Part shown: piece by piece, positions 1 through 32,890 of the stretch | How positions within the stretch are numbered: position 1 is the stretch's first letter | Layout: each line of letters opens with the position of its first letter | NCBI GenBank assembly: GCA_048939765.1 | Contig: JBHLPF010000007.1 | Location: 28,511 to 92,510, forward strand | Origin: Promethearchaeota archaeon | Lineage (GTDB): Archaea > Asgardarchaeota > Thorarchaeia > Thorarchaeales > Thorarchaeaceae | Reading direction: 5' to 3' | Length of the DNA: 64,000 nt | Translations under genes and position numbers: made by a program | Notes under the pieces: model-generated | Database searches by the model: none | Seen by the model: only the letters and a program-made list of their open reading frames with translations | What the model was told of the DNA's origin: nothing

Positions 1-1593
1 CACAGGTGCCGCAAGATTCACGTTTGTTAGTGCAATTACACCTGGAATCCGGAGTGTTTCAGTGGACTCAAGAAAGGCTGCAAAAAGGGCCAGCACTGAC
101 ACTGCTGATGCACCAATGGCAAATCCCTTTGTGATCGCCTTTGTGGTGTTGCCACTGGCATCCAGTTTATCACATACTACAATTGCCTCTTCGGGTGCTT
201 GAGCCTGTTCGATGACACCTCGTGCGTTATCCACAATGGGCCCATATGCATCCGAGCTCATGATCATTCCATTGGTTGACAGTAGGCCAACGGCTGCTAT
301 CGCGACACAGTAGATTCCATTCTCCCACGTCTGTGGACCTAGGGTTGATGCCCCTGATCCAAGAAGAAATGAAGCCACCATGGCTACACCAATACCAACC
401 ACAGATGGGACCGCACTCAGCAGACCGTATGAGTAGCCTGACAGGATTAGATTCGCAGAACTCTTGTCTGCAGACTCGACCATTTTTTGCACGGGCGTGA
501 ATCCTCCAAAACCTCGGTCGCTGGTGAACACATCACTTGTAAAGCCGATGAATACACCAGCAAAGAGACCGACGATTGCTGCCAGTGCTATTGCGAGGTC
601 GAGCTGTAGAAACAGTACCATGGACACCGTGAAGATAGCAAATAGAATCGTCGTGATATAGGTCCCTCGATTCAATGCGGGTCCTGGATCTTGGTCTGGC
701 TTCGCTCTGACCAAGAAGACACCGATTACTGAGGCGATAGTCCCAAGAGCAGCAATCATGAGAGGTAGGAGCCCAAACAGCTGGACGCCATCCAAGTGCA
801 AGTCAATGCCAGCACCAAGGATTGAGGCCGCGAGGATAGCTGCCACATTGCTGTCATACAGGTCTGCTCCGGTTCCAGCTACGTCGCCAACATTGTCACC
901 GACCGCATCAGCAACAGCAGCGGGATTTCTAGGGTCATCTTCAGGAATGTGATGTTCAATCTTGCCAACAAGATCAGCCGAAAGGTCAGCAGTCTTTGTA
1001 TATATGCCGCCGCCAGCTTTGGCAAACAAGGCTACTGTGCTAGCTCCAAATGAGAAACCCGTAATAATCTCCCAGAGGGCAACTGCAGGCTCCACACCAA
1101 TTGCCTCAAAGACCTCCGCAGGAATGACAGTATTCCAAAGGAAATAGAGAGTCCCTAGTCCGACTAGCGCTATCCCGGCGATCATCAGCCCCATTACTGA
1201 GCCAGCTCGGAATGCCACTTTGAAGGCAGGAACAAGTCCCCCTGTTTCCGCAGCCGCGGCTGTTCGACGGTTTGCTTTGGTAGCCACGACTATTCCAACA
1301 TATCCCGCAGCCATGCTAGCCCCTGAGCCGAGGATATAAGAAATGGCGATTTGAATGCCGAAGTCTCGAAATAGAATTGCGATGAGTATCGCAAGAATCA
1401 GAGTAAAGATTGTGAGTATCTTGTATTGAACCTTGATGAAAGAGTATGCGCCTTCTTCAACTAGTGCACTGACTTCGCGCATTTTTTCGCTGCCTTGGTC
1501 TTCTTTCTTGACCTGATAGTAGATGATGAAGGCGACAAGTATTGCTAGCACACCCGATGCAATACTTGTTCCTAGGAAAAGTGGGGCCGCCAT
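1..1593 (-). CDS. hppA: Membrane-bound H+-translocating pyrophosphatase, K+-independent type (3' part runs off the window start)
   Basis: Not in the ORF track because it is truncated. Manual translation from ATG at 1593 gives MAAPLFLGTSIASG..., GGGIYTKTADLSADLVGKIEHHIPEDDPRNPAAVADAVGDNVGDVAG and LDASGNTTKAITKGF, the canonical mPPase motifs. Confidence 0.95.
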   Translation of the reverse strand, partial: MAAPLFLGTSIASGVLAILVAFIIYYQVKKEDQGSEKMREVSALVEEGAYSFIKVQYKILTIFTLILAILIAILFRDFGIQIAISYILGSGASMAAGYVGIVVATKANRRTAAAAETGGLVPAFKVAFRAGSVMGLMIAGIALVGLGTLYFLWNTVIPAEVFEAIGVEPAVALWEIITGFSFGASTVALFAKAGGGIYTKTADLSADLVGKIEHHIPEDDPRNPAAVADAVGDNVGDVAGTGADLYDSNVAAILAASILGAGIDLHLDGVQLFGLLPLMIAALGTIASVIGVFLVRAKPDQDPGPALNRGTYITTILFAIFTVSMVLFLQLDLAIALAAIVGLFAGVFIGFTSDVFTSDRGFGGFTPVQKMVESADKSSANLILSGYSYGLLSAVPSVVGIGVAMVASFLLGSGASTLGPQTWENGIYCVAIAAVGLLSTNGMIMSSDAYGPIVDNARGVIEQAQAPEEAIVVCDKLDASGNTTKAITKGFAIGASAVSVLALFAAFLESTETLRIPGVIALTNVNLAAPV

Positions 1594-1670
1594 TTTGTAT
1601 GCTCCATGTTTTTCGGGAGATGCCCTGTATATAGACTCTCCTCTAGTCGCAGCACAAATAGATTCAAAGA

Positions 1671-2159
1671 CTAGAGTTTTCGAAGCTGGTGGTTCTCGAT
1701 AACTGGATCAAGCTCCAAAACTTCAACCTTCAGCATCTTGTCACCTTGACGTATCTGCTTGACAACATCAAAGCCCTCGACTGTCTGACCAAACACTGTG
1801 TGCTTTCCATTAAGGTGTTTGCAGTTGTTCCCATTCAGAACTATAAAGAATTGGGACCCACCCGTGTCACGTCCTGCATGTGCCATTGAAAAGGCTCCAT
1901 CACTGTGTTTCTGCCTGTGTCCACTTGTTTCACAGGGGATTCTGTATCCTGGACCGCCTGAACCAGTTCCTGTTGGGTCACCGCCCTGAATCACGAAGTC
2001 AGGTACTACACGATGAAACATGAGACCGTCATAATAGCCGCTTTGAGCTAGTGTGACGAAGTTTTTGACGGTGTTGATAGCATCATCTGACCAAAACTCT
2101 GCGACTATGTCACCCTTGTTTGTCTGAATCTTAATTCTAGTTGCCAAAGATATCACCAT
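1671..2159 (-). CDS. Cyclophilin-type peptidyl-prolyl cis-trans isomerase
   Basis: YYDGLMFHRVVPDFVIQGGDP, SMAHAGRDTGGSQFF, HTVFG motifs. Confidence 0.95.
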   Translation of the reverse strand: MVISLATRIKIQTNKGDIVAEFWSDDAINTVKNFVTLAQSGYYDGLMFHRVVPDFVIQGGDPTGTGSGGPGYRIPCETSGHRQKHSDGAFSMAHAGRDTGGSQFFIVLNGNNCKHLNGKHTVFGQTVEGFDVVKQIRQGDKMLKVEVLELDPVIENHQLRKL

Positions 2160-2285
2160 GACAATTGCTAACCAGCCGTTTTGCCAGTTGTTTTTTCACA
2201 GTATGACTCCTTCTTAGAGGTTGCGAAGCGGTCATAGGTATTATGCTCATCATTCTTAAGCACACCAAACGACTCCCTCGCGGTC

Positions 2286-3491
2286 ATGATAATAGAGAAA
2301 GAGTACAAAGAAGGCAGAATCACCTTCGTCAGTGCAGATGTGGACTATTATAGTGAGAATAAGAAGCAGCCAACTGCTGACATGCCAGTCTTCATGAATC
2401 CACGTATGCGCCTTAATCGTGACTTCTCTGTTCTCTTTCTCGCCGCGTATCTAGATGGAAATCCAATAGAACTGATGTGTGAACCACTTGCGGGATGCGG
2501 TGTCAGAACGCTCCGTTATCTGAAAGAGTGCCAAGGGACATTTGATGCATTGATGTTTGATGCGAATCCAAATGCCATTGAAACTATCAACAAGAACATA
2601 CAGCTTCTAGGACTCTCTGAGAGGGCTATGGCAAAGCTAGGAGATGCCAAGGTCCTTCTACTGACTGAATCGAGGGAGAGGAGATTTGACTACGTGGATG
2701 TTGATCCATTTGGAACGCCTGCTCCGTACATGAGTGCGGCAATTCAATCAATGGGTCCCAAGGGAGGGCTTCTTGCCCTCACGGCTACCGATATGGCATC
2801 ACTCTATGGTGTCTATCCTAGAGTGGCTCTCAGGAAATACGGTGGTCTCTCGACTAGGACTCCATTCTCACACGAGCTTGCTGTGAGACTCTTGATTGGA
2901 CATTCTTTCAATGTCGCAGGAGCCAACGACTACTCGGTCACGCCACTTGCGGTGCTAAGTACGGATCATTATATCAGAATCTGGCTCCGAATCAGAGCTG
3001 ACAGAAACGGAGCGAATCGCAATGTAGATGACATGGGGCTAGTCATGTATTGTCCGGAGTGCATGCATTCTGAAATGATTCCATTGAGGTCTAAACAGGA
3101 GTACTGGAAAATTGAGCATCAGAAGGATGATTGTTCTGGAAGGCTTGTCACTGCCGGTCCTCTCTGGATTGGCAGTCTCTACGATACAGACATCTTGGAC
3201 GCTGCGGAACGGATTGTTCCAGAAATGGAAGATGTGTTTGAGAAACGTGTCACAAAGATGCTACGGATGATGATTGATGAGTGTGTACTGGATACTAATC
3301 CGTTTATTGACATCCACGCACTCTGTGACCTACATAACCTGGTCCCTCCGAAGCTTGCAGAAATCATCTCCGCCCTTAGAGAGGCTGGAAATCTTGCGGA
3401 ACGGACCCATTTCAGACCAACGGCGATACGAACTAACGCCGCAGTAAGAGAAGTGGCTGAGATTGTAGCCGCACTTTCAGGAGAGAAGTAG
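2286..3491 (+). CDS. trm1: tRNA (guanine26-N2,N2)-dimethyltransferase
   Basis: VFMNPRMRLNRD, LAGCGVR, DVDPFGTP, LTATD motifs; C-terminal RTHF. Confidence 0.93.
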   Translation: MIIEKEYKEGRITFVSADVDYYSENKKQPTADMPVFMNPRMRLNRDFSVLFLAAYLDGNPIELMCEPLAGCGVRTLRYLKECQGTFDALMFDANPNAIETINKNIQLLGLSERAMAKLGDAKVLLLTESRERRFDYVDVDPFGTPAPYMSAAIQSMGPKGGLLALTATDMASLYGVYPRVALRKYGGLSTRTPFSHELAVRLLIGHSFNVAGANDYSVTPLAVLSTDHYIRIWLRIRADRNGANRNVDDMGLVMYCPECMHSEMIPLRSKQEYWKIEHQKDDCSGRLVTAGPLWIGSLYDTDILDAAERIVPEMEDVFEKRVTKMLRMMIDECVLDTNPFIDIHALCDLHNLVPPKLAEIISALREAGNLAERTHFRPTAIRTNAAVREVAEIVAALSGEK

Positions 3492-3493
3492 AC

Positions 3494-4114
3494 ATGCCTA
3501 GACCAAAGAAATCCCGGACGAAAGAACACTACTACAAGTCGGCCAAGGCCCATGGATACAGGGCTAGGAGTGCATACAAGCTTAGACAGATTGCACAAAA
3601 ACACAAGCTGCTTGATGATGTCGATACCGTAGTCGAACTCTGTAGTAGTCCGGGCGGATGGACTCAGGTGCTTCGAGAGATGGACAGTGGTCTAGAAATT
3701 GTGGCTGTTGATCTCAATCCAATGGCTCCAATTAAAGGAGTGACATTCATTCAAGGGGACATCTTGGAACCCAAGACACTGGACCAAATCAGGGCTGCAA
3801 CCCGTGGGACCATTGATCTGGTCATATCCGACTGTGCGCCAAATGTGTCTGGAAACTGGGACTTGGACGTCTTCAGACAGCTCTCATTAGCTGAACGTGC
3901 TCTAGACATTGGAATGAAGCTATTGGATTCCAAAGGAAAGGTACTCACGAAGGTCTTCCAAGGCAGTGGATTCCAAGAGTTCCTTCAGACGACTAGGAAG
4001 AAGTACCGTTCTGTCAAACTGGTAAAACCAGCAGCATCACGCCAGAGCAGTGCCGAGATCTATCTACTTGCGTTAGGACCAATTGGAAAGCCAGAAAATG
4101 AAATCGGGCACTAG
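3494..4114 (+). CDS. rlmE: 23S rRNA Um2552 2'-O-methyltransferase (RlmE/FtsJ)
   Basis: GYRARSAYKL, SPGGW, SDCAPNVSG, KVFQG, KPAASRQSSAEIY (K-D-K-E tetrad). Confidence 0.95.
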   Translation: MPRPKKSRTKEHYYKSAKAHGYRARSAYKLRQIAQKHKLLDDVDTVVELCSSPGGWTQVLREMDSGLEIVAVDLNPMAPIKGVTFIQGDILEPKTLDQIRAATRGTIDLVISDCAPNVSGNWDLDVFRQLSLAERALDIGMKLLDSKGKVLTKVFQGSGFQEFLQTTRKKYRSVKLVKPAASRQSSAEIYLLALGPIGKPENEIGH

Positions 4115-4464
4115 TTCGCCTGTGTACTGATCATCCAATCTTCAATTTCCCTGCAGCTAACAGGCGAGTCAGGCTGTCTAACACCACATCTGCTAATCTT
4201 CAGACAATGAAAACAGGGACACCCATTCATATCGGACAGACTACCATGGTCAGCCTCATCGCTGAAGTCCGCTCTCAGCATATACTTCTCTTCCTTTTGT
4301 TCTAGTTTCTGCACTTTGATTAGCCCCTTTGTCACAAGTTGCTCGATTTTATCGGTCAATTTGGCTGGTTTCATACCAAGGCTAGACGCTAGTTCATTGA
4401 CGAGAAGACCCCTCTCCCCTGCCGCATTCAGAGCGTCCAGAATTGGGTCCATTTCATCGTTCAT
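4111..4464 (-). CDS. tfeB: Transcription factor E beta subunit (RPC34/RPC39-like winged helix + Fe-S domain)
   Basis: N-terminal wHTH plus C-terminal PCFHC-x5-C-x10-C-x5-W cluster motif. Confidence 0.8.
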   Translation of the reverse strand: MNDEMDPILDALNAAGERGLLVNELASSLGMKPAKLTDKIEQLVTKGLIKVQKLEQKEEKYMLRADFSDEADHGSLSDMNGCPCFHCLKISRCGVRQPDSPVSCREIEDWMISTQAN

Positions 4465-4574
4465 TGAGATGACCTTTGGCTAACACATGGCAACACACGA
4501 CATTCAGCACGGATTGATATTTAGATTTCGGAAGAGGCTCCACATTTTCGACAATTGATGTACAGAAGTGTACA

Positions 4575-4817
4575 TTATTTTGAACGTTTATAGAGATATA
4601 GAATCTGACCCACAAGCTTCTCTGCACTTTTCTTGTCCAAGGGTCGAACAGCCACATATGGGGTCTTCACAGGTCCAAACACATCAACAATAGCTCCAAT
4701 CTTCTCGGCATTTTTGTTCACAACGACTGATTTGTCGCCCATAGCAGGTGTCTTGTCTGTTTTGAGGATTAGAAACCCCCGTTTGGAAACATGTAACACT
4801 TTTCCGAGTCGTTTCAT
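4575..4817 (-). CDS. gar1: H/ACA RNP subunit Gar1
   Basis: MKRLGKVLH...IGAIVDVFGPVKTPYVAV; start refined to ATG 4817. Confidence 0.9.
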   Translation of the reverse strand: MKRLGKVLHVSKRGFLILKTDKTPAMGDKSVVVNKNAEKIGAIVDVFGPVKTPYVAVRPLDKKSAEKLVGQILYLYKRSK

Positions 4818-4843
4818 CAGAATCCACCGAGTTCCCAACAGAA

Positions 4844-5206
4844 CTATCGCTTCTTGCCTTTTCGTTTCTTCTTGCTCTTTTTCTTTTCCGCATCTTTCTT
4901 CGCGGATTCACGCTGTGCAACTATGCGTCTAACGCCCTTAGCCAACATTAGCAGTAGCCGCTTCTTCTTGTGTCCTTCAGGATTCTCTACGACCAGATAG
5001 CCGCTCGCACTGCTCCAATTCCGAGGATATCGCTTGTCTGGTTCCAACTCATACTCAAACCCTGCAGATTCTGCAGCCTTCTGAAGGATTTCAACTGTGA
5101 CTTCAGGCGCACCAAGATTCTTTGACACCCTCCGTCCTTGTGCTCTACTTAAGTTGGAATCCAAGTATGCGGGCCAAACAATAACCATTCCATCGCGTTT
5201 TCTCAT
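4844..5206 (-). CDS. srp19: Signal recognition particle 19 kDa protein
   Basis: [29 protein letters not shown]; start refined to ATG 5206. Confidence 0.92.
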
Positions 5207-5342
5207 TACTGCGAGATTCTCCTTGGTTCCGTGGACAGGCGCCCCCAGGACCAGTGTTCTTTTTATCTTTCCCATTCCGCGACGGACAAAGACCTTCATA
5301 AGAACGAATAGTCTCCTCAAGAATCAAGGAGCTGTTCTGATA

Positions 5343-5819
5343 TTGGCAAGGAAGAGCAAGGACGTCTACTTCTGCGAGATTGCAGACTTGGTATCATCGA
5401 GAAGCACTTGTCTAAGAAACCAAGTAGGAGCTGTAATCGTAAAGGAAGCACAGATTCTCAGTACGGGATACAACGGTGCGCCAAAGGGACTGAAGCATTG
5501 TGAAGAGGTAGGTTGTATGCGCGAGGAGCTTGGTGTCAAACCTGGTGAACGACACGAGCTCTGTCGTGGTCTTCATGCTGAGCAGAACGCCGTCATTCAG
5601 GCTGCCTATCATGGTGTAAGTGTGAATGGTGCTATGATATTCTGCACAACAAGACCCTGTAGTATTTGCACCAAGATCCTAATCAATGCAGGAATCAAGG
5701 AGATAGTGTACATCGAACACTATGAGGACAAGCTTGCAGCCCAGCTTATAGATGAGGCAGGGCTCAAGCTGAGACAAGTCGAGATTCCTAGAAAATATGG
5801 AAGGAACTCTTCCAAGTAG
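5343..5819 (+). CDS. dCMP deaminase (ComEB/cytidine deaminase family)
   Basis: [33 protein letters not shown]; start refined to TTG 5343. Confidence 0.9.
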
Positions 5820-5912
5820 GTGTAGGCGCCAACTTGGGAAAGGCACCGGTTCTCTGGAAAGCTTAAAGTACGACATCAGTTGCTCATCGGCCAATAGCTG
5901 GAGAGGCGCCTG

Positions 5913-6827
5913 ATGCGAAGTTTGCACAATCTGATCAGCATACATGACCTCGACCGGACCACGATAGACAAGATTCTCAAGACTGCTGAGGAGATGGAAT
6001 CTGTTGCCGTCGAAAGGTCAAACGAATTGAGTGGCAAGATTATGGCGACTCTCTTCTTTGAACCATCGACTAGGACTCGGCTTTCATTTGAGAGTGCAAT
6101 GATCAGGTTAGGCGGACGTGTTCTTGGATTTGCAGATGTGATCTCATCATCAGCTGGAGGTAAGGGGGAAACTCTTGCAGATACAATCCGTACAGTCGAA
6201 AGATATGCAGACATCATTGTGATACGACACCCCTTGGATGGCTCGGCAAGAGTCGCTGCAGAGTTTTCAAGCGTCCCTATAATCAATGCTGGCAGTGGTT
6301 CTGAAGAACATCCAACACAAGCACTCCTCGATCTCTATTCCATTAAGAAGATAAAAGGTACAATAGACGGCCTCTCAATCTCGCTCTGTGGAGATTTGAG
6401 GTACGGCAGAACTGTTCATTCTCTCGGGATGGCCCTCTCATACTACGATGTCAATGTCAAGCTGGCTGCCCCGCCCACATTGAGAATGAAGCCAGCAATC
6501 GTTGAGGAAATGAAGAAATCAGGCATCAAGGTCACTGAAGTCGAATCTGTTGAGGATGCAATTAGCGACGTGGATGTTGTTTACATGACTCGTATCCAGA
6601 AGGAACGCTTTCCTGATGTGAACGAGTATGACGAAGTTAGAGGCAAGTTCCGAATCACAGCTGATGATCTAAAGCTGATGCGTGAGGATGCTATCATCCT
6701 TCACCCCCTTCCTCGTGTTGATGAACTCTCTTCAGAGATTGACAATACACCACATGCGAAGTATTTCGATCAAGTATATAGTGGCGTGGTGACGAGGATG
6801 GCCATCTTGAAGATGATACTTGGCTAA
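5913..6827 (+). CDS. pyrB: Aspartate carbamoyltransferase catalytic subunit
   Basis: FFEPSTRTRLSF, HPTQALLD, RIQKERF, HPLPR. Confidence 0.97.
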   Translation: MRSLHNLISIHDLDRTTIDKILKTAEEMESVAVERSNELSGKIMATLFFEPSTRTRLSFESAMIRLGGRVLGFADVISSSAGGKGETLADTIRTVERYADIIVIRHPLDGSARVAAEFSSVPIINAGSGSEEHPTQALLDLYSIKKIKGTIDGLSISLCGDLRYGRTVHSLGMALSYYDVNVKLAAPPTLRMKPAIVEEMKKSGIKVTEVESVEDAISDVDVVYMTRIQKERFPDVNEYDEVRGKFRITADDLKLMREDAIILHPLPRVDELSSEIDNTPHAKYFDQVYSGVVTRMAILKMILG

Positions 6828-24601: not shown

Positions 24602-25459
24602 CTAGTCATGAAAACCAGGAAGGGCTACAATAGTTCCCACTGATTTGTTAATCAGTGCAAGACTCGCTATGATTGCCTCCTCCAAACGCACCGTTTCAGT
24701 ACCTTGTCCCAAGATAGTGTTCACCCAGAAGTCGGAGTTCTTTTTGATTGCATCCTTTTCATTCGAAAGGAGTTCGGCGACACCGTGCATCGGACCGCCA
24801 AAGACTGCAAGGATTGATCTAGTGTTTGCCACGGTGGATGCAATCTCGTTCTCAAGTCGATCGTAAGACGGTGCGTTTCTCGAGAAGATGATTCGAGTCA
24901 TATGAGCCGAGTTGCTCAGTCTATCTGTAAGACTAGTGATTCTCTCTACCTCGAACCCCCAGTATCTCTCAATTTCAGACCGATTGATGGGCTCAATGCG
25001 TATTCTGGGCGTGGTTTCGATGATGCGAAGGAGTGTGGGCGACCTTTCACTCAGTGCTTCAGAGTGGTCAATAAGCTCACCAATACCTATGTCCACTTTG
25101 CCGAAACGAACTTGGACTCCCCACCTAGTCATTCCTATTGACAATTCTGAGGGTTCTGAGTCTAGCGGGTGACTGCGAGTTCTCAGCGGAGGCAGAAGAC
25201 CTGCGAACTTCAAGGAAGGTGTCTTGGGGAAAATACGTCTACGAAGATATTGAGGAGTATCCATGAACTCGAGTAGCCTCACCAATAGGTCGGAGTCTCT
25301 CTTTGCCTTTGAACGCAGGTTTCCGGTTTCATATACAATCACGCGTTCCACACGAAAGACCGCCATCGCTCTGGCAAGGATGCCAGATTTCACCGTCTTC
25401 TGACGCAAGTCAGAACAGTCTACCAGCGATGTGTCAGGAATTGCGACTTGAAGACCCAA
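24602..25459 (-). CDS. SPOUT RNA methyltransferase (COG2106 / SPOUT1-like)
   Basis: VAIPD, ARAMAVFRV, TPQYLRR, GLLPPL, FGGP, QGTETVRLEEA. Confidence 0.9.
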   Translation of the reverse strand: MGLQVAIPDTSLVDCSDLRQKTVKSGILARAMAVFRVERVIVYETGNLRSKAKRDSDLLVRLLEFMDTPQYLRRRIFPKTPSLKFAGLLPPLRTRSHPLDSEPSELSIGMTRWGVQVRFGKVDIGIGELIDHSEALSERSPTLLRIIETTPRIRIEPINRSEIERYWGFEVERITSLTDRLSNSAHMTRIIFSRNAPSYDRLENEIASTVANTRSILAVFGGPMHGVAELLSNEKDAIKKNSDFWVNTILGQGTETVRLEEAIIASLALINKSVGTIVALPGFHD

Positions 25460-25471
25460 TACTGCATCCCT

Positions 25472-25909
25472 CTAGAGGTCCAATGTGAATCTGAGCGTGG
25501 TACGATCCGCTCCCTGTTCAATACTCATATCTGCATATGTCATGGCCTTCACTTCTGTCCGTGTATCTTGACGCTCAAGATCGATATCCTCACCCCATAT
25601 TCGACCATTTAGAGCAAAGCCCTCAGTATCTCTGGAAATCTTTTGAACCTGGAACTTGGAATAGAACTGAGAGTTGATGTCGATGAGTGCTATGAGATGA
25701 CCAATCCATTCCACCAGAAGCTCCTCAATATCAATCCCGTGCACCGTTACATCAATGGATTCGACAGGCTGAACTGTCGATGTATCCAATATCACCTCTA
25801 ATGCTCCAAGTGCCGCCTCCTCAAATGCCTCTTCCAGAGTTGGAGCCCAGCACTCTACTGTGATGTCAGCTGTGTGATCATGATACTTGAAACCGCGCTC
25901 GCCTGTCAT
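25472..25909 (-). CDS. Archease
   Basis: DHTAD, EVKAMTY, C-terminal LDL. Confidence 0.93.
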   Translation of the reverse strand: MTGERGFKYHDHTADITVECWAPTLEEAFEEAALGALEVILDTSTVQPVESIDVTVHGIDIEELLVEWIGHLIALIDINSQFYSKFQVQKISRDTEGFALNGRIWGEDIDLERQDTRTEVKAMTYADMSIEQGADRTTLRFTLDL

Positions 25910-25971
25910 TCTTCTCCAGCGCTCACCTCTACAAGAAGCTTAAAAGGCGTTTCCAACGGTTGCAATGCTGA

Positions 25972-26087
25972 GCCGAGGTAGCCAAGCCCGGATTACGGCG
26001 CTGGTCTTGAAAACCAGTTTCTTCGGAAGCATGAGTTCAAGCAATTCCACAAAATGTGGATTGGAACAAATCTCATCCTCGGCGCCA
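25972..26087 (+). tRNA. tRNA-Ser(UGA) with 29-nt non-canonical T-loop intron (26041-26069, position 58/59)
   Basis: GCCGAGG/CCTCGGC acceptor, G discriminator + CCA, CTGGT-CT-TGA-AA-ACCAG, variable arm; removing the insert restores GTTCAAATC. Confidence 0.9.
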
Positions 26088-26174
26088 TTTCTTCTATGTC
26101 TGTTTAGGTTAATCTCTATGAGGGCTTATTTCAAAATTCACAAAGTCTTTCCTTTATTTTAGATTGATATATGC

Positions 26175-26744
26175 TTAGCATTCAGATGTTTTGTGTAAAA
26201 AGAACTTCTTTTCAGCTTTATAGGGAGGATAAGAGAATAATTCGATATGGGCTATCTGTACTATGAAAGGATTCGTAATCTGTAAATCAAGGTAATCTTG
26301 GGAAATCTCCACTGCCTTAGCTATTTCCTGAGTTGGGAGGTCTAATAGAAGGGTCACATGTGGACTCCACATACTATCTGGTTTTCGATCCAAATCTACT
26401 CCTTGGTCTTCTAATGTTTCCAAGCAGAGTTTTCGTAATGATTGAAGATTGCTTGAATATTGTGGATTAAGATAGAAAACATGGCTGGCAGGAAACGTAG
26501 TCAGACCGGTAAATTCCAGTGAAAAGGAGTTAGAATTAGAAATTGCAGATTCCAATGCATCATAGTATTCTTGTTTTCTTAATTCTTCATGTTCAAGTAA
26601 TGTAATGTGGGGTGGCACTCGCACATATGTTTGACCATGCAAATCTGGAGAATCATTCAGGATTTTCTGTAATTCTTTCAACTTGTTAGTTGATGCTTCA
26701 TCAAAACAAGCAATTATCCCAGTCCAAAAATCCATGGTCCTCAA
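26175..26744 (-). CDS. 2H phosphoesterase / 2'-5' RNA ligase family protein
   Basis: Two HxT motifs (PPHITL, SPHVTL) about 85 aa apart. Confidence 0.85.
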   Translation of the reverse strand: MRTMDFWTGIIACFDEASTNKLKELQKILNDSPDLHGQTYVRVPPHITLLEHEELRKQEYYDALESAISNSNSFSLEFTGLTTFPASHVFYLNPQYSSNLQSLRKLCLETLEDQGVDLDRKPDSMWSPHVTLLLDLPTQEIAKAVEISQDYLDLQITNPFIVQIAHIELFSYPPYKAEKKFFLHKTSEC

Positions 26745-26825
26745 CTTAGATAATCCAATTCAGTTCAAAGAACCTTAAGGGGTGCCTTAAGGTTTCCGAG
26801 AATGAAGGACCAGTAGTATAAGGCA

Positions 26826-26851
26826 TTCAAATCTCACCCTCGGCGCCATTT
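26826..26851 (+). repeat. att-like copy 1 of the tRNA-Ser 3' end (TTCAAATCTCACCCTCGGCGCCATTT)
   Basis: Matches the spliced tRNA 3' end plus TTT, one mismatch. Confidence 0.85.
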
Positions 26852-26902
26852 AACTCTCGAAAGCTTGATTTTGCAGAGATGCAGAGAATAGTCGGTGTTT
26901 GG

Positions 26903-27892
26903 ATGGTTGAGTGTTTTGTCACAGGGGGCACCGGATTCATTGGGAGCCACATTGTCCGTCTACTGACTGAAAGAGGCGATCACGTTAATGTGTTAGTACG
27001 CAAGACGTCGAACATGGAATTGATTGAGAATCTACCGGTTTCTAAAGCTGTGGGAGATATCACGGATATTGATAGCATGGCGAGCGGAATATCGGATCAC
27101 ACAGAATGGTTCTTCCATAATGCGGCCCGGATGTCAGAATGGGGCGGGAAGGCTAGAAACTGGCCTGTCAATGTTGAAGGGACTCGCAACGCCTTAGAGG
27201 TGGCCCGAAGAAAGGACGTTCCACAATTCATCTATACCTCATCGACCGCCCTCTATGGGTTTCCTGGAAAGCCGATGACAGAGGACTCTCCGAGAAGGCC
27301 ATACGAGTCGTACCAGCAGTCAAAGCTTGCAGCAGAGGAATTGGTATGGAAGTATTCACAGGACTACGGAATCAGGGCTACGGCAGTTAGACCACCAACG
27401 GTAGTGGGCCATGGCGATATGTACCTAGGTCCGATACTTATCGAGGCAGTGAGATCTGGAACATATGTGCACTTGGATGGTGGGAAGAATCGTCAGAGCA
27501 TTGTGCATGGCGAAGATGTTGCACGGTGCCTAATCTTGGCTGCAGAGAACTTTGGAAAAGCCCATGGAAATGCATACAATGTCACATCCTTCATTGTTGA
27601 GATGCGGGTCTTCATAGAGGCTCTGGCTGACGAACTTGGAGTACCAAAGGACTTCCGGAGTATGCCCTACAAAGCTGCACTTGCTGTCGGAAAGGTCACA
27701 TCAGGTTTGTTTCGAGCCTTTCACCGTAAGGAAAGCCCCTTCCTGACAGCTTTTCGCGTGAAGTACATGGGCAGCGACTATGTAGTTGATGACTCAAAGG
27801 TGCGCCAAGAGTTGGGGTATAAACCACGGTGGAACCTAGAAACCACAGTTAGAGACATGGTTGAGTGGGGAGGAGAATTCAAGCCTCGATAG
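26903..27892 (+). CDS. NAD-dependent epimerase/dehydratase (extended SDR, 3-beta-HSD-like)
   Basis: TGGTGFIG, NVEGT, YxxSK; start refined to ATG 26903. Confidence 0.9.
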   Translation: MVECFVTGGTGFIGSHIVRLLTERGDHVNVLVRKTSNMELIENLPVSKAVGDITDIDSMASGISDHTEWFFHNAARMSEWGGKARNWPVNVEGTRNALEVARRKDVPQFIYTSSTALYGFPGKPMTEDSPRRPYESYQQSKLAAEELVWKYSQDYGIRATAVRPPTVVGHGDMYLGPILIEAVRSGTYVHLDGGKNRQSIVHGEDVARCLILAAENFGKAHGNAYNVTSFIVEMRVFIEALADELGVPKDFRSMPYKAALAVGKVTSGLFRAFHRKESPFLTAFRVKYMGSDYVVDDSKVRQELGYKPRWNLETTVRDMVEWGGEFKPR

Positions 27893-27952
27893 AAACCAAG
27901 GCGCTTTTGCAGAGTCTTGTGAGTGTTAGGCTATTGCTTTCCTAGATTCCTC

Positions 27953-27970
27953 TCTCACCCTCGGTGCCAT
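27953..27970 (+). repeat. att-like copy 2 of the tRNA-Ser 3' end (TCTCACCCTCGGTGCCAT)
   Basis: 17/18 identical to copy 1. Confidence 0.7.
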
Positions 27971-28070
27971 CTCTTCATAAAATAAGACTCCCAAGGTGCT
28001 ATGTGTAGCTGAATACGACTCATTGCGTTGAACAAAGAGCTATATAATCAATTCATCCATTGGAAGAATA

Positions 28071-28442
28071 TTGCGTGGTGGTATTGCTATGAATAGGTTT
28101 CAGCGGACGAAGGCCGTACCTGAGCACATAGGATATGCCGTGGTACCAAAGCCGCTCCTGAAACGCTTCATCTTTTTGAGGTCGATGCGTTGTGCAGTTT
28201 GCGTTGCGCTAGCATTCTTGCTGCTTCTGCCTCTTACAATATTACCCGGACTAGTGGTTTTGGTGCTTCCCGCGGAGATTACCCTGGTTGGAAGAATTCA
28301 GGATGAAGCAGAACTTGTTCTTTGGGTGCGGAGTAATATGATCACTCAGGCAGGCACTTGGGAAGATGCTGAGTTAGAAAGCGAAATGGTTCGTCTAAGG
28401 ACCCATGACAGACCTCGTGCTGTACAAGACTACTCACGGTAG
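28071..28442 (+). CDS. Hypothetical small membrane protein
   Basis: Hydrophobic central segment; upstream TATATAA box at 28041-28047. Confidence 0.55.
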   Translation: MRGGIAMNRFQRTKAVPEHIGYAVVPKPLLKRFIFLRSMRCAVCVALAFLLLLPLTILPGLVVLVLPAEITLVGRIQDEAELVLWVRSNMITQAGTWEDAELESEMVRLRTHDRPRAVQDYSR

Positions 28443-28511
28443 ATAACACAGTAGTTTCCTATGGCTTGGGAATCTCGCCTAGTCTGAGTAAGGTAGCAGC
28501 AATCCTTGTCA

Positions 28512-29129
28512 TTAATTGGTCAAAAATACCATTATGGCCAAGACAAAGTAGTAGACCTGATAGGAACTGACCATAAACCTCTCGATCAGACCGAAATAGC
28601 TACTTGTGGCTGTAAATGACGAGATAATGACAAGAATCAGTGAAACTATTGCCGTAATCAGCGAAAATGTCGCAAAAGCACTCCATTCGAATACCGATTC
28701 TAATCGGAACCACATTGCCACCATTCCTGCAGTCGCCAATATTCCTGAGATTGCAATCAGGGTGAGGTGCAGCTTTCCACGGACAGTAACAATCTCACCA
28801 CCAGCATCAAGAGGGAAGAATAGAGCGACAAGCACTCCAAGGAGCCCACTGATTATGAATAAGATAGGCCCAATTATTGAGCCTACTCCATTATTCACTC
28901 CCCAATGAAGACCAAGGTAGAAGACGAAAAGAAGGGTGCTAGATGTAATGATGAACTTGTCAAACAGCTTCTTGTTAGGAGCATCAACTGCCATGAGTGA
29001 GCTGACATCATCTCGAACGTGACTGTAATCAGGCTGGATAATTCCTCCAATGATCCACATTAGAGTATAGATGATTGGACTCAGCATTCCGCAGATTGCT
29101 AGAATCTGAAATAGATTCATGACTATCAT
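28512..29129 (-). CDS. DUF998 family membrane protein
   Basis: PDYSHVRDDVSSL, FPLD, H, GLIER pattern with multiple TM helices. Confidence 0.8.
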   Translation of the reverse strand: MIVMNLFQILAICGMLSPIIYTLMWIIGGIIQPDYSHVRDDVSSLMAVDAPNKKLFDKFIITSSTLLFVFYLGLHWGVNNGVGSIIGPILFIISGLLGVLVALFFPLDAGGEIVTVRGKLHLTLIAISGILATAGMVAMWFRLESVFEWSAFATFSLITAIVSLILVIISSFTATSSYFGLIERFMVSSYQVYYFVLAIMVFLTN

Positions 29130-29144
29130 TCAACCCGTGCCACA

Positions 29145-30416
29145 TTAGGCGTTTAGATTCTCAATAACAGTGGCAACGCCCTGTCCGCCACCAACACAGG
29201 CATTGGCAACTCCATATTTCGCGTTATTCTCTTTGAGAATTCTTGCCAGAGTGCCGGTCAACCTGATCATGGTTGAACCTAGAGGATGTCCAATCGCAGT
29301 GGAACCACCCATTACATTCACCTTCTCCTCCGGAATGTTCAGTTTATCCATGCAGTTGAGTGCAACAATGCAGAAAGCCTCATTGATTTCCCAGTAGTCA
29401 ATGTCCTCGACGCTTAATCCTGCATGCTTGAGGGCCTTTTTGGTGGCAGGTACAGGTCCACGACCCATCACAGTTGGATCGACTCCAGCCCATCCCATGG
29501 AAACAATCCTTGCCATTGGCTCCGCACCTCGCTTTTCAGCCTCCTTTGCCTCCATTATGACCGCGGCAGTAGCACCTGCATTGAGAGGCGAGGCATTGCC
29601 CGGTGTAATCACTCCCTCTTCAGTCCCTTCTCGCTTGATATAGCCCTCTTTTCCACCATTCTTCTCAAGGAAGAAGGGGATTGATACTCTTGGGAGAGTT
29701 GAAACCTTCTCAAGTGTTGAGGGTCGTGCACTCAGATCCCTGTCCACCAACATGGGTTCGTCAACATTGCCAGGTGTATGTCCCTCAATAGGGATAATCT
29801 CCCCCTTGAACCATCCACTCTCCTGATTCTTGACTGTTAGATTGTGACTTCTCACACCGAATTTGTCCATGTCCTCCTTGGTAAAGGTGGGAACCTCTTC
29901 CTCGTACAGCTTCTGGGCTGTCTGTAACATGTTGAACACTGTCGCGGGGTCCAGGCCGGGTCGGTAGAACTCTGAAGCCTCGTCAGCAAAAGACAGGTTA
30001 GGTTCGACTCCCTTCCCCCTCACTCGGGTCATATGCTCAAATCCCGTTGATAGCACGGTTTTGCTGTACCCGGTCATAATCTCCATGATACCAATATGCA
30101 TTCCAGAGCCTGCAGACCCACACTGACGGTCGACAAAGATAGATGGAACATCATGTGGAAATCCTGACAGGAAGGCTGGAATCTTGCCCCCATAGGTCCA
30201 GTTCTCAAGGACTCCGGCGGCCACACCAATGGTGATCTCATCGATGTCCTTCTTCTCAATTCCTTTGTTCGCCAATGAACCATCAAAGAATTTCATCAGC
30301 AACCGTGATAGGAGCTCATCTCCCCTAATCTCACCAAAGGCGTCAGTTTCTGGCTTATTGGGACGCGATCGTGAGAATGGGGTACGCACATAATCGACCA
30401 GCCAAACTTCTTTCAT
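29145..30416 (-). CDS. Acetyl-CoA C-acyltransferase (thiolase)
   Basis: VRTPF, DRQCGS, NEAF, GHPLG, CVGGGQG; start refined to ATG 30416. Confidence 0.93.
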   Translation of the reverse strand: MKEVWLVDYVRTPFSRSRPNKPETDAFGEIRGDELLSRLLMKFFDGSLANKGIEKKDIDEITIGVAAGVLENWTYGGKIPAFLSGFPHDVPSIFVDRQCGSAGSGMHIGIMEIMTGYSKTVLSTGFEHMTRVRGKGVEPNLSFADEASEFYRPGLDPATVFNMLQTAQKLYEEEVPTFTKEDMDKFGVRSHNLTVKNQESGWFKGEIIPIEGHTPGNVDEPMLVDRDLSARPSTLEKVSTLPRVSIPFFLEKNGGKEGYIKREGTEEGVITPGNASPLNAGATAAVIMEAKEAEKRGAEPMARIVSMGWAGVDPTVMGRGPVPATKKALKHAGLSVEDIDYWEINEAFCIVALNCMDKLNIPEEKVNVMGGSTAIGHPLGSTMIRLTGTLARILKENNAKYGVANACVGGGQGVATVIENLNA

Positions 30417-30506
30417 GGCTTCCCCAGAAGGACTTCTGAGTTTTAACTCTTCTTTCGAATGGAGCATGAAAGAGGATTTATCTCACAGGACGCCCTCCAA
30501 CAGCTC

Positions 30507-31295
30507 ATGCCCAGGGTCCTGATACATGACATTGAAACCTACTATGAAATAGCCGGCGAGGGAGAAGCAATCGTGTTTGTTCACGGCGCAGCTGGTTCTC
30601 ACGACAACTGGCGCCCTCAGGTTAAGCACCTGTCCGACCGCTTCGAAGTCGTGACATACGATATAAGGGGACACGGGAAGTCAAGTGGGTCTGACAGGAA
30701 ATATAGCTGTGAGCTCTTCGCAGATGATCTGAATGGGCTGATAACCGCACTCGAGTTAGAAAGACCCGTTGTCTGTGGGCTCTCTCTTGGAGGGATGATA
30801 GCCCAGCAGTACGCTGTAAGGCATCAGTCCGGTCTTGCGGGACTTGTACTGGCGGACACTGCAGTGGCCTCAGCTCTGACCCTCTCAGACAAGCTTCAGA
30901 AATGGATGTTCCCAGTGAGCCTGGTCAAATGGTATATTCGCAGAAAGACTCCAGAAGACTATGCGAGATGGTCATTCAAGTATTTCGACATGAAGGATGA
31001 TGTGAGAGAGTATCTGATTCAGGAACAACTTCGAATGGATCAGACAGAGTTTCTCAAACTGATGGATGCCATCTATGGGTTTAAGCTGCTTGACCTTGCC
31101 AGCATCAAAGTGCCAACGCTTGTGGTACTGGGTGAGAATGAACGAAAGGCAGTCTTTCCGCATGCAGACAAGATGATAGAGCTGATTGAGGGCTCAAGGA
31201 AGGTCGTTATTCCGGATGCTGGACATGCCTCCAATCTAGAGAATCCCACCGAGTTCAATCGAGTGCTTGACGAGTTCTTGGAACACGTGTTCTAA
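30507..31295 (+). CDS. Alpha/beta hydrolase
   Basis: FVHG, DIRGHG, GLSLGG nucleophile elbow, AGH; start refined to ATG 30507. Confidence 0.9.
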   Translation: MPRVLIHDIETYYEIAGEGEAIVFVHGAAGSHDNWRPQVKHLSDRFEVVTYDIRGHGKSSGSDRKYSCELFADDLNGLITALELERPVVCGLSLGGMIAQQYAVRHQSGLAGLVLADTAVASALTLSDKLQKWMFPVSLVKWYIRRKTPEDYARWSFKYFDMKDDVREYLIQEQLRMDQTEFLKLMDAIYGFKLLDLASIKVPTLVVLGENERKAVFPHADKMIELIEGSRKVVIPDAGHASNLENPTEFNRVLDEFLEHVF

Positions 31296-32890
31296 ATCTT
31301 CTTCTCGAGATAGGGTCCTGTATCGTTGAAATCAAGGGCGCGATAATATTCCTTGACTCCAATTCCGCTGTTCACAATCAGCCTGTTGACTTGGAAATCC
31401 TCGAGTGTGATTCGCTCTGCCTCTTTGAGCATGCGGTCTCCAAGACCCAAATGCTGCCACGCATCCGGGTTCCTCTCACCAATCTCTACAACAGGACCAT
31501 ACACTCTGAGCTCTCTAATAATGGCGCAGGGGCTATGATTAATCTCGGGGCGGTGAGCCTGGTCACTGGGCATGCGGAGTCTGAGGAATCCAAAGATGAT
31601 ATCTTGACTTTGCTTCTCGAAGGAAAGAAAGATTTCTAGGCCATCTGCAGCCTCATAGTCACGACGCACCAGCTCAATACCTTCAAAACTCACCTTTTGT
31701 CCGGTCCGCATCTGAAAGTGACCAATCTCTCTGTATCGAATCGTTGGGTTTCTCAGACCTTTCTCACTCATTCGATGATGCACCAGCTCTCGTAGGTTTC
31801 CTTTGCTGAAACCAGCCTCTATCTGATGGAGTGGGATGTCCCTCTGCATCCTCTGGATACGAACATACTCGGGCATTTTGCTGACTGCATTAGAGACGAG
31901 TTCCACGACTTGATCATCAGAATAGGGACTGTATATTCCCTGTTCCCACCACTCGAACAGCTTTGTATTCTTCACCACAAGCGTAGGATAGATCTTCAGC
32001 ATATCTGGTTGAAACCTAGAATCAGTGAATAATGCTTCAAAGTCTTCAAGGTCAGAGTCTGAAGTATTTCCAGGTAGACCAGGCATCATATGATAGCACA
32101 CTTTCAGTCCGCTATCCCTGAGCATCTTTGTCGCTTGGATGGTCTGTTCAAGCAGATGACCTCTCTGTACCCGTTCTAGGACCTCATCCGAGAGCGTCTG
32201 AACACCGATTTCCACACGGGTAGCACCCATTTCCAGCATGCTATCGATGCTTTCAGGAATCACCCAATCCGGTCGAGTTTCGAATGTGAGACCTACGTTG
32301 CGGACCTTAGCTGTTTCGTTCGTCTTCTGTGACTCATTCAAACTCCCTCCGACTGTCCTATTCATTGCATCGAAACAGCCCTTGACAAAAGACTCCCTGT
32401 AGTCAGGCTCCTTCGAACACCAGTCGCCACCCATGACTATTAGTTCCACCTTTTGGACCGAATGACCGATCGTATCCAACTGATTTAGCCTGCTCTCTAC
32501 CTGCCTGAATGAATCAAAGTCATTTTGCAGCCCTCTCATTGTGGCAGGTTCATGACCTGTATAGCTCTGGGGAACTCCTGCATCAGGCCCACCAGGACAA
32601 TATGCGCACGCACCATGAGGACACTTATGAGGTTCTGTCATGACAGCAACAACAGCGACTCCGGAAACTGTACGAACAGGTCGTTTCTGCATCAGAGGCT
32701 GAAGTATTTCTAGCTCTTCAGGAATTGCCGCTTGCAACACGTCTGCGTTTGATGGGACTCGGGACGCCTTATGCAGTCCACAGATCCTGCTCTTGATTTG
32801 ATTTATCTCACGCCGATCAAGAGCCGTTTCTGAGCTAAGAAGGGATTCGATAATCTCTCTATACAGTGCATAGTAATCTGGGAGAGGCAT
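31292..32890 (-). CDS. elp3: tRNA uridine(34) acetyltransferase Elp3 (radical SAM + GNAT)
   Basis: PVRTVSGV, CPHGACAYCPGG, ETRPD, RELRVYG, QHLGLG. Confidence 0.96.
   Translation of the reverse strand: MPLPDYYALYREIIESLLSSETALDRREINQIKSRICGLHKASRVPSNADVLQAAIPEELEILQPLMQKRPVRTVSGVAVVAVMTEPHKCPHGACAYCPGGPDAGVPQSYTGHEPATMRGLQNDFDSFRQVESRLNQLDTIGHSVQKVELIVMGGDWCSKEPDYRESFVKGCFDAMNRTVGGSLNESQKTNETAKVRNVGLTFETRPDWVIPESIDSMLEMGATRVEIGVQTLSDEVLERVQRGHLLEQTIQATKMLRDSGLKVCYHMMPGLPGNTSDSDLEDFEALFTDSRFQPDMLKIYPTLVVKNTKLFEWWEQGIYSPYSDDQVVELVSNAVSKMPEYVRIQRMQRDIPLHQIEAGFSKGNLRELVHHRMSEKGLRNPTIRYREIGHFQMRTGQKVSFEGIELVRRDYEAADGLEIFLSFEKQSQDIIFGFLRLRMPSDQAHRPEINHSPCAIIRELRVYGPVVEIGERNPDAWQHLGLGDRMLKEAERITLEDFQVNRLIVNSGIGVKEYYRALDFNDTGPYLEKKI

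Follow-up and report, generated by a model that had tools for sequence, protein, structure and literature searches.

Alteromonas additive islands (PMC4898812) and the Prochlorococcus islands built by tycheposons (10.1101/2020.12.28.424599) share a hotspot directly 3' of a tRNA gene (a tRNA or tmRNA gene in Alteromonas), a partial tRNA repeat downstream of each added cassette, displacement of older units by newer ones, and cassette sets that differ among close relatives and are shared across distant taxa. In the tycheposon-built islands new arrivals push the older ones inward (10.1101/2020.12.28.424599). Here we analysed a 64-kb stretch of Thorarchaeota DNA, referred to throughout as the window, in which the gene for tRNA-Ser(UGA) is followed by two one-gene cassettes that each end in a copy of the tRNA 3' end. 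An additive cassette island lies between tRNA-Ser(UGA) and the gene for Elp3, and the window contains its youngest part, the end next to the tRNA. The locus is a tRNA-linked additive island, a kind known in bacteria and not a new category; new here are the Asgard host, the single-gene units and the fact that no integrase was seen with the arrays.

The repeat is present in three copies in the window and in up to six in a relative (G072), matching the partial tRNA repeats of the bacterial islands. Unlike those islands, the units here are mostly single genes (0.4-2.4 kb), about 43 arrays show neither an integrase nor a remnant of one, the host is an Asgard archaeon, and the tRNA gene has introns, with intron bases retained in one displaced copy. 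A tyrosine integrase goes with at least some units of an additive island, whereas none was found with the arrays in 41 genomes searched (incomplete metagenome-assembled genomes, MAGs). Att-flanked units without their own integrase (or transfer genes), standing in tandem at one tRNA or tmRNA site, are known from the cis-mobilisable elements (CIMEs) of streptococci and the integrase-less tandem ssrA islands of Dehalococcoides (PMC6323972, PMC3146451). CIMEs, however, derive from integrative conjugative elements (ICEs), and what moves them is the integrase of a related ICE, and no such element was seen here in 62 chromosomal loci. Integrons exist in Archaea too (PMC9668308), and a preliminary description of this DNA, made from the sequence alone, had called the locus an integron-like array. 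That likeness holds for the stack of swappable, mostly one-gene cassettes at a fixed platform, the newest of them lying nearest to it, but not for the parts: there is no IntI and no attI, the border is a direct copy of the tRNA end, 81-nt stretches around copies 2 and 3 of the repeat gave no attC-type hairpin on either strand (z +0.1 to +1.4 versus shuffles), and, whereas integron cassettes are co-oriented and share a common promoter, the genes here point either way and each is preceded by a spacer of its own. Gene capture and tandem elements of the Sulfolobus spindle-shaped virus (SSV) type (PMC8371274) also involve archaeal tRNA integration sites, tandem integration and trapped DNA, but they are multi-gene and leave split integrase halves at their borders, and no split integrase was present here. 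No paper on such arrays in Asgard archaea was found in the literature searched.

Results

The window genome (G000, contig C64) is a MAG of 108 contigs and 3.37 Mb, 88.5% complete, from a genus labelled g1; relatives are given G-numbers and their genera g-numbers. Pattern search located the 17-mer TCTCAYCCTCGGCGCCA three times in the window, every time on the + strand, at 26071-26087 and 26832-26848 without mismatch and at 27953-27969 with one mismatch, as compared to a chance expectation of 0.28 matches at up to three mismatches. Close copies elsewhere in the G000 assembly were not found. Copy 1 (26067..26090, +) is the functional, attL-like 3' end of the tRNA, copy 2 (TTCAAATCTCACCCTCGGCGCCAT, 26826..26851, +) consists of the T-loop and 3' end without the intron, and copy 3 (27949..27972, +, core 27953-27969) is an older, decayed tRNA end whose orthologue in G005 is a perfect 17-mer. 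In a 24-mer comparison copy 2 was 96% and copy 3 75% identical to copy 1. A candidate fourth copy (71%, 30325-30348) falls within the thiolase coding sequence and was treated as chance.

Each repeat-to-repeat interval contains exactly one open reading frame (ORF) of at least 60 aa. Cassette 1 (26088-26825) carries a LigT-like 2H phosphoesterase of 189 aa (26175..26744, - strand; PF13563, E 4e-17, and PF02834) with both HxT motifs intact (HITL and HVTL). Cassette 2 (26852-27948) carries an NAD-dependent epimerase/dehydratase of the short-chain dehydrogenase/reductase (SDR) type, 337 aa long (26879..27892, + strand; PF01370, E 1e-39). Neither gene is a recombinase, and the 27-87 nt spacers beside the repeats contain no open frame and no match to the tyrosine recombinase family PF00589. 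Cassette 1 has a GC content of 36.3% (0.31 at third codon positions) as compared to 49% for cassette 2 and 48% for the window (neighbours 48-50%). These results agree with what the preliminary description had read from this segment, namely a tRNA-Ser 3' end that recurs at 26826-26851 and, more degenerate, at about 27953-27970, a single gene and no integrase in each interval, and a proximal cassette that is the most AT-rich and has the best repeat. They add that the tRNA has an intron.

The tRNA-Ser(UGA) gene (25972..26087, +) is 116 nt long with an encoded CCA, and is made up of exon 1 (about 25972-26040), a T-loop intron (about 26041-26069) and exon 2 (about 26070-26087), the splice point being ambiguous by 1-2 nt. 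The intact gene was reported by neither ARAGORN nor Rfam because of this insertion of about 29 nt in the T-loop; ARAGORN called tRNA-Ser(tga) only once 27-31 nt had been cut from the T-arm. Folding gave the acceptor stem plus a separate intron hairpin (z -3.7).

A DNA search in 40 relatives provided the first comparison. In G002, which is about 90% identical here, archease, the tRNA, the 2H unit and copy 2 are followed directly by the sequence that stands after copy 3 in the window. The SDR unit is precisely absent from this genome and the alignment blocks overlap by 17-18 nt at the repeat. In G005 the tRNA is followed first by a DUF4760 gene and next by the SDR unit, which a perfect repeat closes, and in G015 and G009 the tRNA is followed directly by the sequence downstream of the G005 repeat, without DUF4760 and SDR. 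The 2H unit is absent from the tRNA site in G005 and G015, and a nitroreductase (NTR) unit of G011 and G004 is absent from G007. Alignment blocks overlapped by 14-37 nt at the repeat in every presence/absence pair. Judged from these alignments, the differences between relatives are clean, unit-sized and placed at the repeats.

For a survey of the family, loci were fetched wherever archease was found, yielding 62 usable loci. Variable DNA sits directly 3' of the tRNA between conserved flanks, with archease and the tRNA before it and Elp3 after it, and measures from 20 bp to 7.6 kb. Elp3 lies 20-100 bp past the tRNA in 19 genomes (empty site) and 266 bp past it in one more (G022, g7). Empty sites were present in g1 (G003 only), g2, g4, g6, g8, g9, g23, g24, g25 and g29, and the filled/empty state changes at least eight times on a quick single-gene Elp3 tree. 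The rest of the loci are filled, with a tRNA-Elp3 gap of 0.7-7.6 kb holding small genes in many combinations and 0-5 repeats. Recurring cargo includes NTR, DUF998, thiolase, alpha/beta hydrolase, DUF4760, 2H and SDR, as well as DUF6992, a leucine-rich-repeat protein, a formamidase-like gene and methyladenine glycosylase. In G072 six repeat copies delimit five units, four with one gene of at least 75 aa and one without any ORF of at least 100 aa. Unit order varies, thiolase coming before NTR in G060 and after it in G078 and G091, and the alpha/beta hydrolase, where present, is directly beside Elp3 in all genomes but G009. Genome-specific units adjoin the tRNA, the proximal repeats are the best preserved, and the orientation of array genes is mixed among relatives as it is in the window (2H -, SDR +).

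The distal border of each unit is a 17-24 nt copy of the tRNA T-loop-to-CCA end. Together these comparisons show that small units, usually of one gene, were inserted repeatedly right after the tRNA gene, and that units were gained, lost and reordered exactly at the repeat copies. The preliminary description had proposed a sequential, polarised capture of minimal cassettes, for which related loci should hold variable numbers of units bounded by the tRNA-Ser(UGA) repeat. Such variable numbers were found in the 62 loci and the content of the site is not fixed; the varying unit orders, the genome-specific units on the tRNA side and the synonymous divergence described below also support the proposal.

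Synonymous divergence (dS, synonymous substitutions per synonymous site) was estimated by the Nei-Gojobori method for cassette genes and neighbouring genes in identical genome pairs. Between G000 and G020 (g1 vs g5) dS was 0.45 for 2H as compared to 1.26 for thiolase and 1.71 for DUF998 (flanking genes 1.3-1.7). DUF4760 gave 0.43-0.84 between g1 and g5 or g24 and NTR 0.75 between G097 and G072 (g5 vs g7), with archease and Elp3 saturated in both comparisons; other inter-genus NTR pairs were older (1.3-2.3). A gene of the HNH family described below gave 0.25 between G018 and G086 (g3 vs g5), with archease saturated. Within g1, dS was 0.09 for 2H between G000 and G002 (flanks 0.23-0.39) and 0.27 for SDR between G000 and G005 (flanks 0.38-1.02). 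By this measure the units next to the tRNA are much younger than the genes on either side, and cassettes are exchanged without regard to the core phylogeny.

Relatives of the 2H protein with 80-85% identity carry the labels Hodarchaeota and Promethearchaeota, and a Hermodarchaeota MAG has a shorter, 74% identical stretch. At the DNA level identity to the Hodarchaeota, Promethearchaeota and Hermodarchaeota MAG genes (L171, L173, L174 and L176) is 84-88%, which implies recent transfer of the 2H gene across Asgard lineages. This homology is limited to the coding sequence and about 20 nt upstream, and the foreign copies lie in AT-rich contexts without the tRNA-Ser repeat, with neighbours that vary from locus to locus. 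The 2H unit is a single captured foreign gene, and the proximal units as a group move horizontally between genera and from other Asgard lineages. For the SDR unit, as for 2H, homology to copies elsewhere begins about 20 nt upstream of the start codon. An SDR orthologue was also observed far from the tRNA in G004 (L033, G004:C1, about 577.8-579.0 kb), with a degenerate repeat, TCTCACTCTCTGTGCCA, 3' of the gene, and an SDR gene lies away from the tRNA in G005 (contig C88). The G004 copy is either a relocated cassette or a source locus with a pseudo-site.

The repeat copies and the tRNA introns bear on how the tRNA end is duplicated. The most distal repeat copy of G072 is preceded by GAACACA, the last bases of the T-loop intron of that genome, and therefore did not come from mature tRNA; the tRNA end is duplicated at the DNA level. 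The T-stem allele of copy 1 in the window is ATGAG/CTCAT, and copy 2 has CTCAC, which pairs with the GTGAG of most other g1 genomes. Both are functional alleles in relatives, and copy 2, with the allele of other g1 members, is therefore a displaced older tRNA end. A homologous T-loop intron is present in about 24 of the 62 relatives, with compensatory changes in its hairpin. G000 is the only g1 genome that has it and its whole tRNA is nearly identical to those of g5 (e.g. G097), which makes recombination with foreign DNA the probable origin of the intron. Read most simply, incoming DNA from a foreign source supplied the 3' part of the tRNA, with the T-arm and, in G000, also the intron. In another tRNA, in G089, a repeat pair covers the whole T-arm with a compensatory stem change. 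We also considered that the intron arrives with the cassettes or blocks them, which was ruled out as six empty-site genomes also have the intron; the two are independent.

Intron gain in archaeal tRNA genes through mobile-element recombination was described by Sugahara et al. 2012 (PMC3293823) in Caldiarchaeum. The likeness to that model lies in the G000 tRNA having the T-loop intron and T-stem allele of another genus beside an imported cassette, and in a second 'intron' of the relatives that holds duplicated tRNA segments. The Caldiarchaeum element, in contrast, is 1.8 kb long and bears a recombinase, and no recombinase accompanies the event here. The second insertion, of about 33 nt after the anticodon stem, occurs in many relatives (e.g. 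L022 in G005, L025 in G016 and L026 in G003), whose tRNA-Ser(UGA) genes are 118-122 nt long. It contains an old variable arm together with pieces that resemble the D-arm (AGCCAAGCC) and the anticodon stem (AACCAG), and looks like a partial internal tRNA duplication, a recombination scar now removed as an intron.

Searches for a conventional recombinase were negative at this locus. G000 has no PF00589 match, and no serine recombinase or reverse transcriptase (PF00078) above the cut-off. Among 41 family genomes PF00589 was found in 16, at no place on a contig stretch with the tRNA-Ser array, in MAGs that are incomplete. The units examined contain no recombinase genes and the cassettes no integrase fragments, and no integrase-bearing element was seen at the tRNA-Ser(UGA) site in the 62 loci. 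Twelve short and fifteen long tyrosine-recombinase loci showed neither a nearby tRNA nor a repeat site; no intron-free tRNA T-arm with CCA was found in the fifteen (up to 8 kb of flank on each side) by a method that misses T-loop-intron tRNAs. A scan of IMG/VR for the 17-mer returned ten matches, all in GC-rich contexts without a tRNA-like flank, which look like chance. The integrase acting in trans that the preliminary description had postulated was thus not recovered, either in G000 or linked to an array in the 41 genomes. In 25 of the 41 family genomes, many of them >90% complete, there was no PF00589 match at all; the universal Xer-type tyrosine recombinase seems to be missing from the family or too divergent to detect.

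The first unit after tRNA-Ser(UGA) in G016, G018, G058, G086 and G101 encodes one protein family (326-385 aa) and has the same repeat borders. A gene of this HNH family is also present at the tRNA-Ser locus of G087 and, in G068, at a second locus with archease. Its product combines two sigma-70-region-4-like helix-turn-helix units with a twice-repeated motif of the form CxxC...IHRKD...CxxCHxxVHW, and C141, C144, H156, K158, D159, H163, C186, C189 and H190 of the first repeat are invariant in 23 sequences. The Pfam HNH match (E 0.013) is below the cut-off and the best PDB profile match, the HNH domain of ZRANB3 (E 0.04), is likewise weak. As whole-protein Foldseek and VIA searches gave only helix-turn-helix matches, the nuclease domain was folded alone. 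The domain model had a pLDDT of 94.4 and its Foldseek matches listed were almost only HNH nucleases (Cap5, Cas5-HNH, SciA, McrA, Gme and Cas9), at weak E values of 0.03-2. In a structure model search the N-terminal part resembled the bipartite DNA-binding domains of Tc3/Mos1 transposases.

The HNH family is patchy and multi-copy (30 of 86 genomes, up to 15 matches in one), and in at least 20 of 30 loci (L109-L138) there is a tRNA gene no more than about 250 bp away, in many cases 5-22 nt from the gene end. Across these loci the proteins range from 300 to 980 aa, with two to many helix-turn-helix units and two HNH-like zinc motifs; the adjacent tRNAs are Ser, Val and ARAGORN calls made uncertain by introns (Gln, Glu, Asn and Cys). 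The single member in G000 is a 977-aa ORF on contig C53 that abuts tRNA-Val(GAC). In G002, G005 and G015 the two ends of this 8.6-kb contig (L177:1-8627) adjoin each other and make up the resident tRNA-Val(GAC), and C53 is therefore an 8.5-kb mobile insertion splitting that gene. It carries a spare tRNA-Val(GAC) (56-162), the family member of 977 aa (141-3074, -), which has helix-turn-helix repeats plus two HNH domains, and a HerA-like ATPase of 1014 aa (3071-6115, -). The same element-type tRNA-Val end is found beside a family member in G051 (g5). The HNH family, as predicted from sequence, is the only mobility-type gene tied to tRNA genes, and its role as a driver is a lead.

Beyond copy 3 the window holds four genes without surviving repeats (28071..31295): a hypothetical gene of 123 aa (28071-28442, +), DUF998 (28512-29129, -), thiolase (29145-30467, -) and alpha/beta hydrolase (30459-31295, +), the last three identified by Pfam. 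Some relatives have a given one of these genes, others lack it or have it in another order, and all four are older units of the same island. The distal flank is Elp3 (31292..32890, -; PF04055/PF16199/PF23613), and the flank on the 5' side of the tRNA is archease (25472..25909, -; PF01951, E 6e-38), which adjoins the tRNA in 72 of 86 family genomes. RNA-processing genes surround the tRNA at 24602-26744 of the window, with a SPOUT RNA methyltransferase and archease, cofactor of the RtcB ligase, before the tRNA, the LigT-like 2H gene after it, and Elp3 farther on. The share of 2H in this clustering is probably coincidental because the gene is a recent import.

Similar units were observed at other tRNA genes. 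At a different tRNA-Ser (L067, G056:C1:222000-233500) a 3.7-kb two-gene unit without integrase is bordered by 27-nt repeats of the tRNA end and encodes an octopine-dehydrogenase-like protein and a B12-binding-domain protein. A second such unit lies on contig C12 of G000 (about 1-1460, L178); it is 1.4 kb long, holds two unannotated ORFs (289 and 160 aa) and is bordered by a 23-nt repeat, TTCAAGTCCCGGCGGGGGCGCCA, from the T-loop-to-3' end of another tRNA. The distal copy of this repeat is preceded by GCA, like copy 2 in the window.

Discussion

The locus is best explained by accretion at tRNA-Ser(UGA). Incoming DNA would bring its own copy of the tRNA 3' end, recombination inside the short identity block would rebuild the tRNA from the incoming copy, and each arrival would push the old tRNA end and the earlier units outward. 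Such displacement would explain why the repeats decay with distance. The enzyme would act in trans, and in the version that we favour a candidate HNH nuclease would cut at or near the tRNA end, with host repair using the short tRNA-end homology. We are confident of the accretion model taken alone, whatever the driver, and put the probability of the whole statement, accretion with the HNH nuclease as leading driver, at roughly 0.55. As a claim of its own, the driver role of the tRNA-gene-associated helix-turn-helix/two-HNH-domain family, which may be homing-endonuclease-like, falls a little short of an even chance. For the other candidate, a tyrosine integrase of the conventional type supplied by some virus or plasmid outside the sampling, the odds are about one in four or slightly better.

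The HNH enzymes of phage T5 are free-standing homing endonucleases in the phage tRNA-gene region. T4 SegB (PMC13096335) is another free-standing homing endonuclease of such a region, and the likeness to the archaeal family extends to a nuclease gene that lies beside tRNA genes and spreads horizontally and to modular helix-turn-helix DNA-binding repeats joined to a nuclease. The phage enzymes, however, promote gene conversion from one phage genome to another, and repeat-bounded cassette arrays are not among their known products; the archaeal protein has two predicted HNH domains. A free-standing homing endonuclease cuts the allele without its gene, close to where that gene inserts, and repair then copies the gene in; for the archaeal family the link seen is a genomic association with tRNA genes. 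Several observations weigh against the nuclease as driver. The only family gene of G000 is at tRNA-Val and not at tRNA-Ser, most tRNA-adjacent HNH genes have no flanking tRNA-end repeats, 18 of 43 array-bearing genomes had no detected member, and both the fold and the sequence matches to HNH domains are weak. To our knowledge there is no precedent of an HNH nuclease making 17-24 nt direct repeats. The family occurs in 25 of 43 array genomes versus 1 of 20 empty ones, a co-occurrence that is strong in raw counts and not established, as allowing for relatedness leaves only 4 independent pairs (p >=0.5, not significant).

Identity blocks from T-loop to 3' end with a regenerated tRNA are exactly the signature of tyrosine (tDNA) integrases, and this, too, counts against the nuclease. 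Under classical accretion a tRNA-targeting tyrosine integrase would act in trans from a virus, plasmid or integrative element, and the cassettes would be integrase-less, att-flanked, cis-mobilisable-like units that it inserts, excises or carries along. Documented tandem arrays in which the newer units lie closest to the tRNA include those of tycheposons (10.1101/2020.12.28.424599) and the Alteromonas islands (PMC4898812), tyrosine recombinases are present in 16 of the 41 family genomes, and a MAG such as that of the window may miss an integrase on an unbinned element. This explanation is nonetheless doubtful given the lack of PF00589 in G000 and in the tRNA-Ser arrays of the 41 genomes, the fifteen integrase loci without an intron-free T-arm and CCA, the lack of any IMG/VR contig with the site in a tRNA-like context, and cassettes free of integrase fragments. 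The preliminary description had kept as an alternative that the intervals are eroded relics of two larger islands, each being what internal deletions left of an integrase-bearing island. Decay of this sort is common at tRNA islands and the distal units here have no repeats, but identical one-gene units with identical borders recur in different genera and neighbour combinations, the foreign 2H homology stops within about 20 nt of the coding sequence, no mobile-element gene remnants remain in the 80-90 nt spacers, and no relative examined has a large island at this site. We consider erosion improbable.

The dS contrast and the coding-only homology of the foreign 2H copies argue against erosion and against pure differential loss, in which a long ancestral array was inherited vertically without mobility and lineages differ by deletions between direct repeats. 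Such deletion is easy between 17-24 nt repeats, and several patterns, G002 versus G000 among them, read equally well as loss. Unit order that differs between genomes and proximal units much younger than the flanking genes contradict vertical inheritance, as do an empty state spread over many genera and a 2H unit of foreign composition with near-identical copies in other Asgard classes, leaving it very improbable. Capture could instead have been mediated by RNA, with the tRNA 3' end priming the cDNA of a single transcript, or receiving it by template switching, before recombination at the tRNA gene. Neurospora retroplasmids are a model for such cDNA priming. The units are about the size of transcripts, the repeat ends at CCA, and 2H and SDR homology starts about 20 nt before the start codon. 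On the other side stand the lack of PF00078 in G000, the intron sequence in the distal G072 copy, which mature tRNA would not contain, and repeats that begin in the T-loop of the gene or, in G089, span the whole T-arm with a compensatory stem change. We give RNA-mediated capture very little credence.

Returning to accretion, the locus is one instance of a lineage-wide way to acquire single genes at tRNA genes, and this gene-by-gene exchange of modules probably runs on machinery different from that of the bacterial additive islands. A more speculative proposal, which we put forward only tentatively, is that Thorarchaeota have a gene-capture platform that serves as an integron does but is made of other parts: tRNA 3' ends would be the docking sites, a helix-turn-helix/two-HNH nuclease aimed at tRNA genes would open them in place of an integrase, single foreign genes would be stitched in through tRNA-end homology, and tRNA introns would be imported or created as repair scars. 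Standard tRNA finders miss such intron-bearing genes, and island finders that depend on them therefore overlook such arrays. Should something other than an integrase be the driver, the recombination system would be a new one, and its link to tRNA introns would offer a testable origin for the non-canonical introns of archaeal tRNA genes. Asgard archaea are studied for gene flow into the lineage leading to eukaryotes, and the routes by which they gain genes are poorly known. The locus offers a concrete and recurrent route, exemplified by 2H, by which single genes of other Asgard classes arrive at a tRNA gene before being shuffled among genera.

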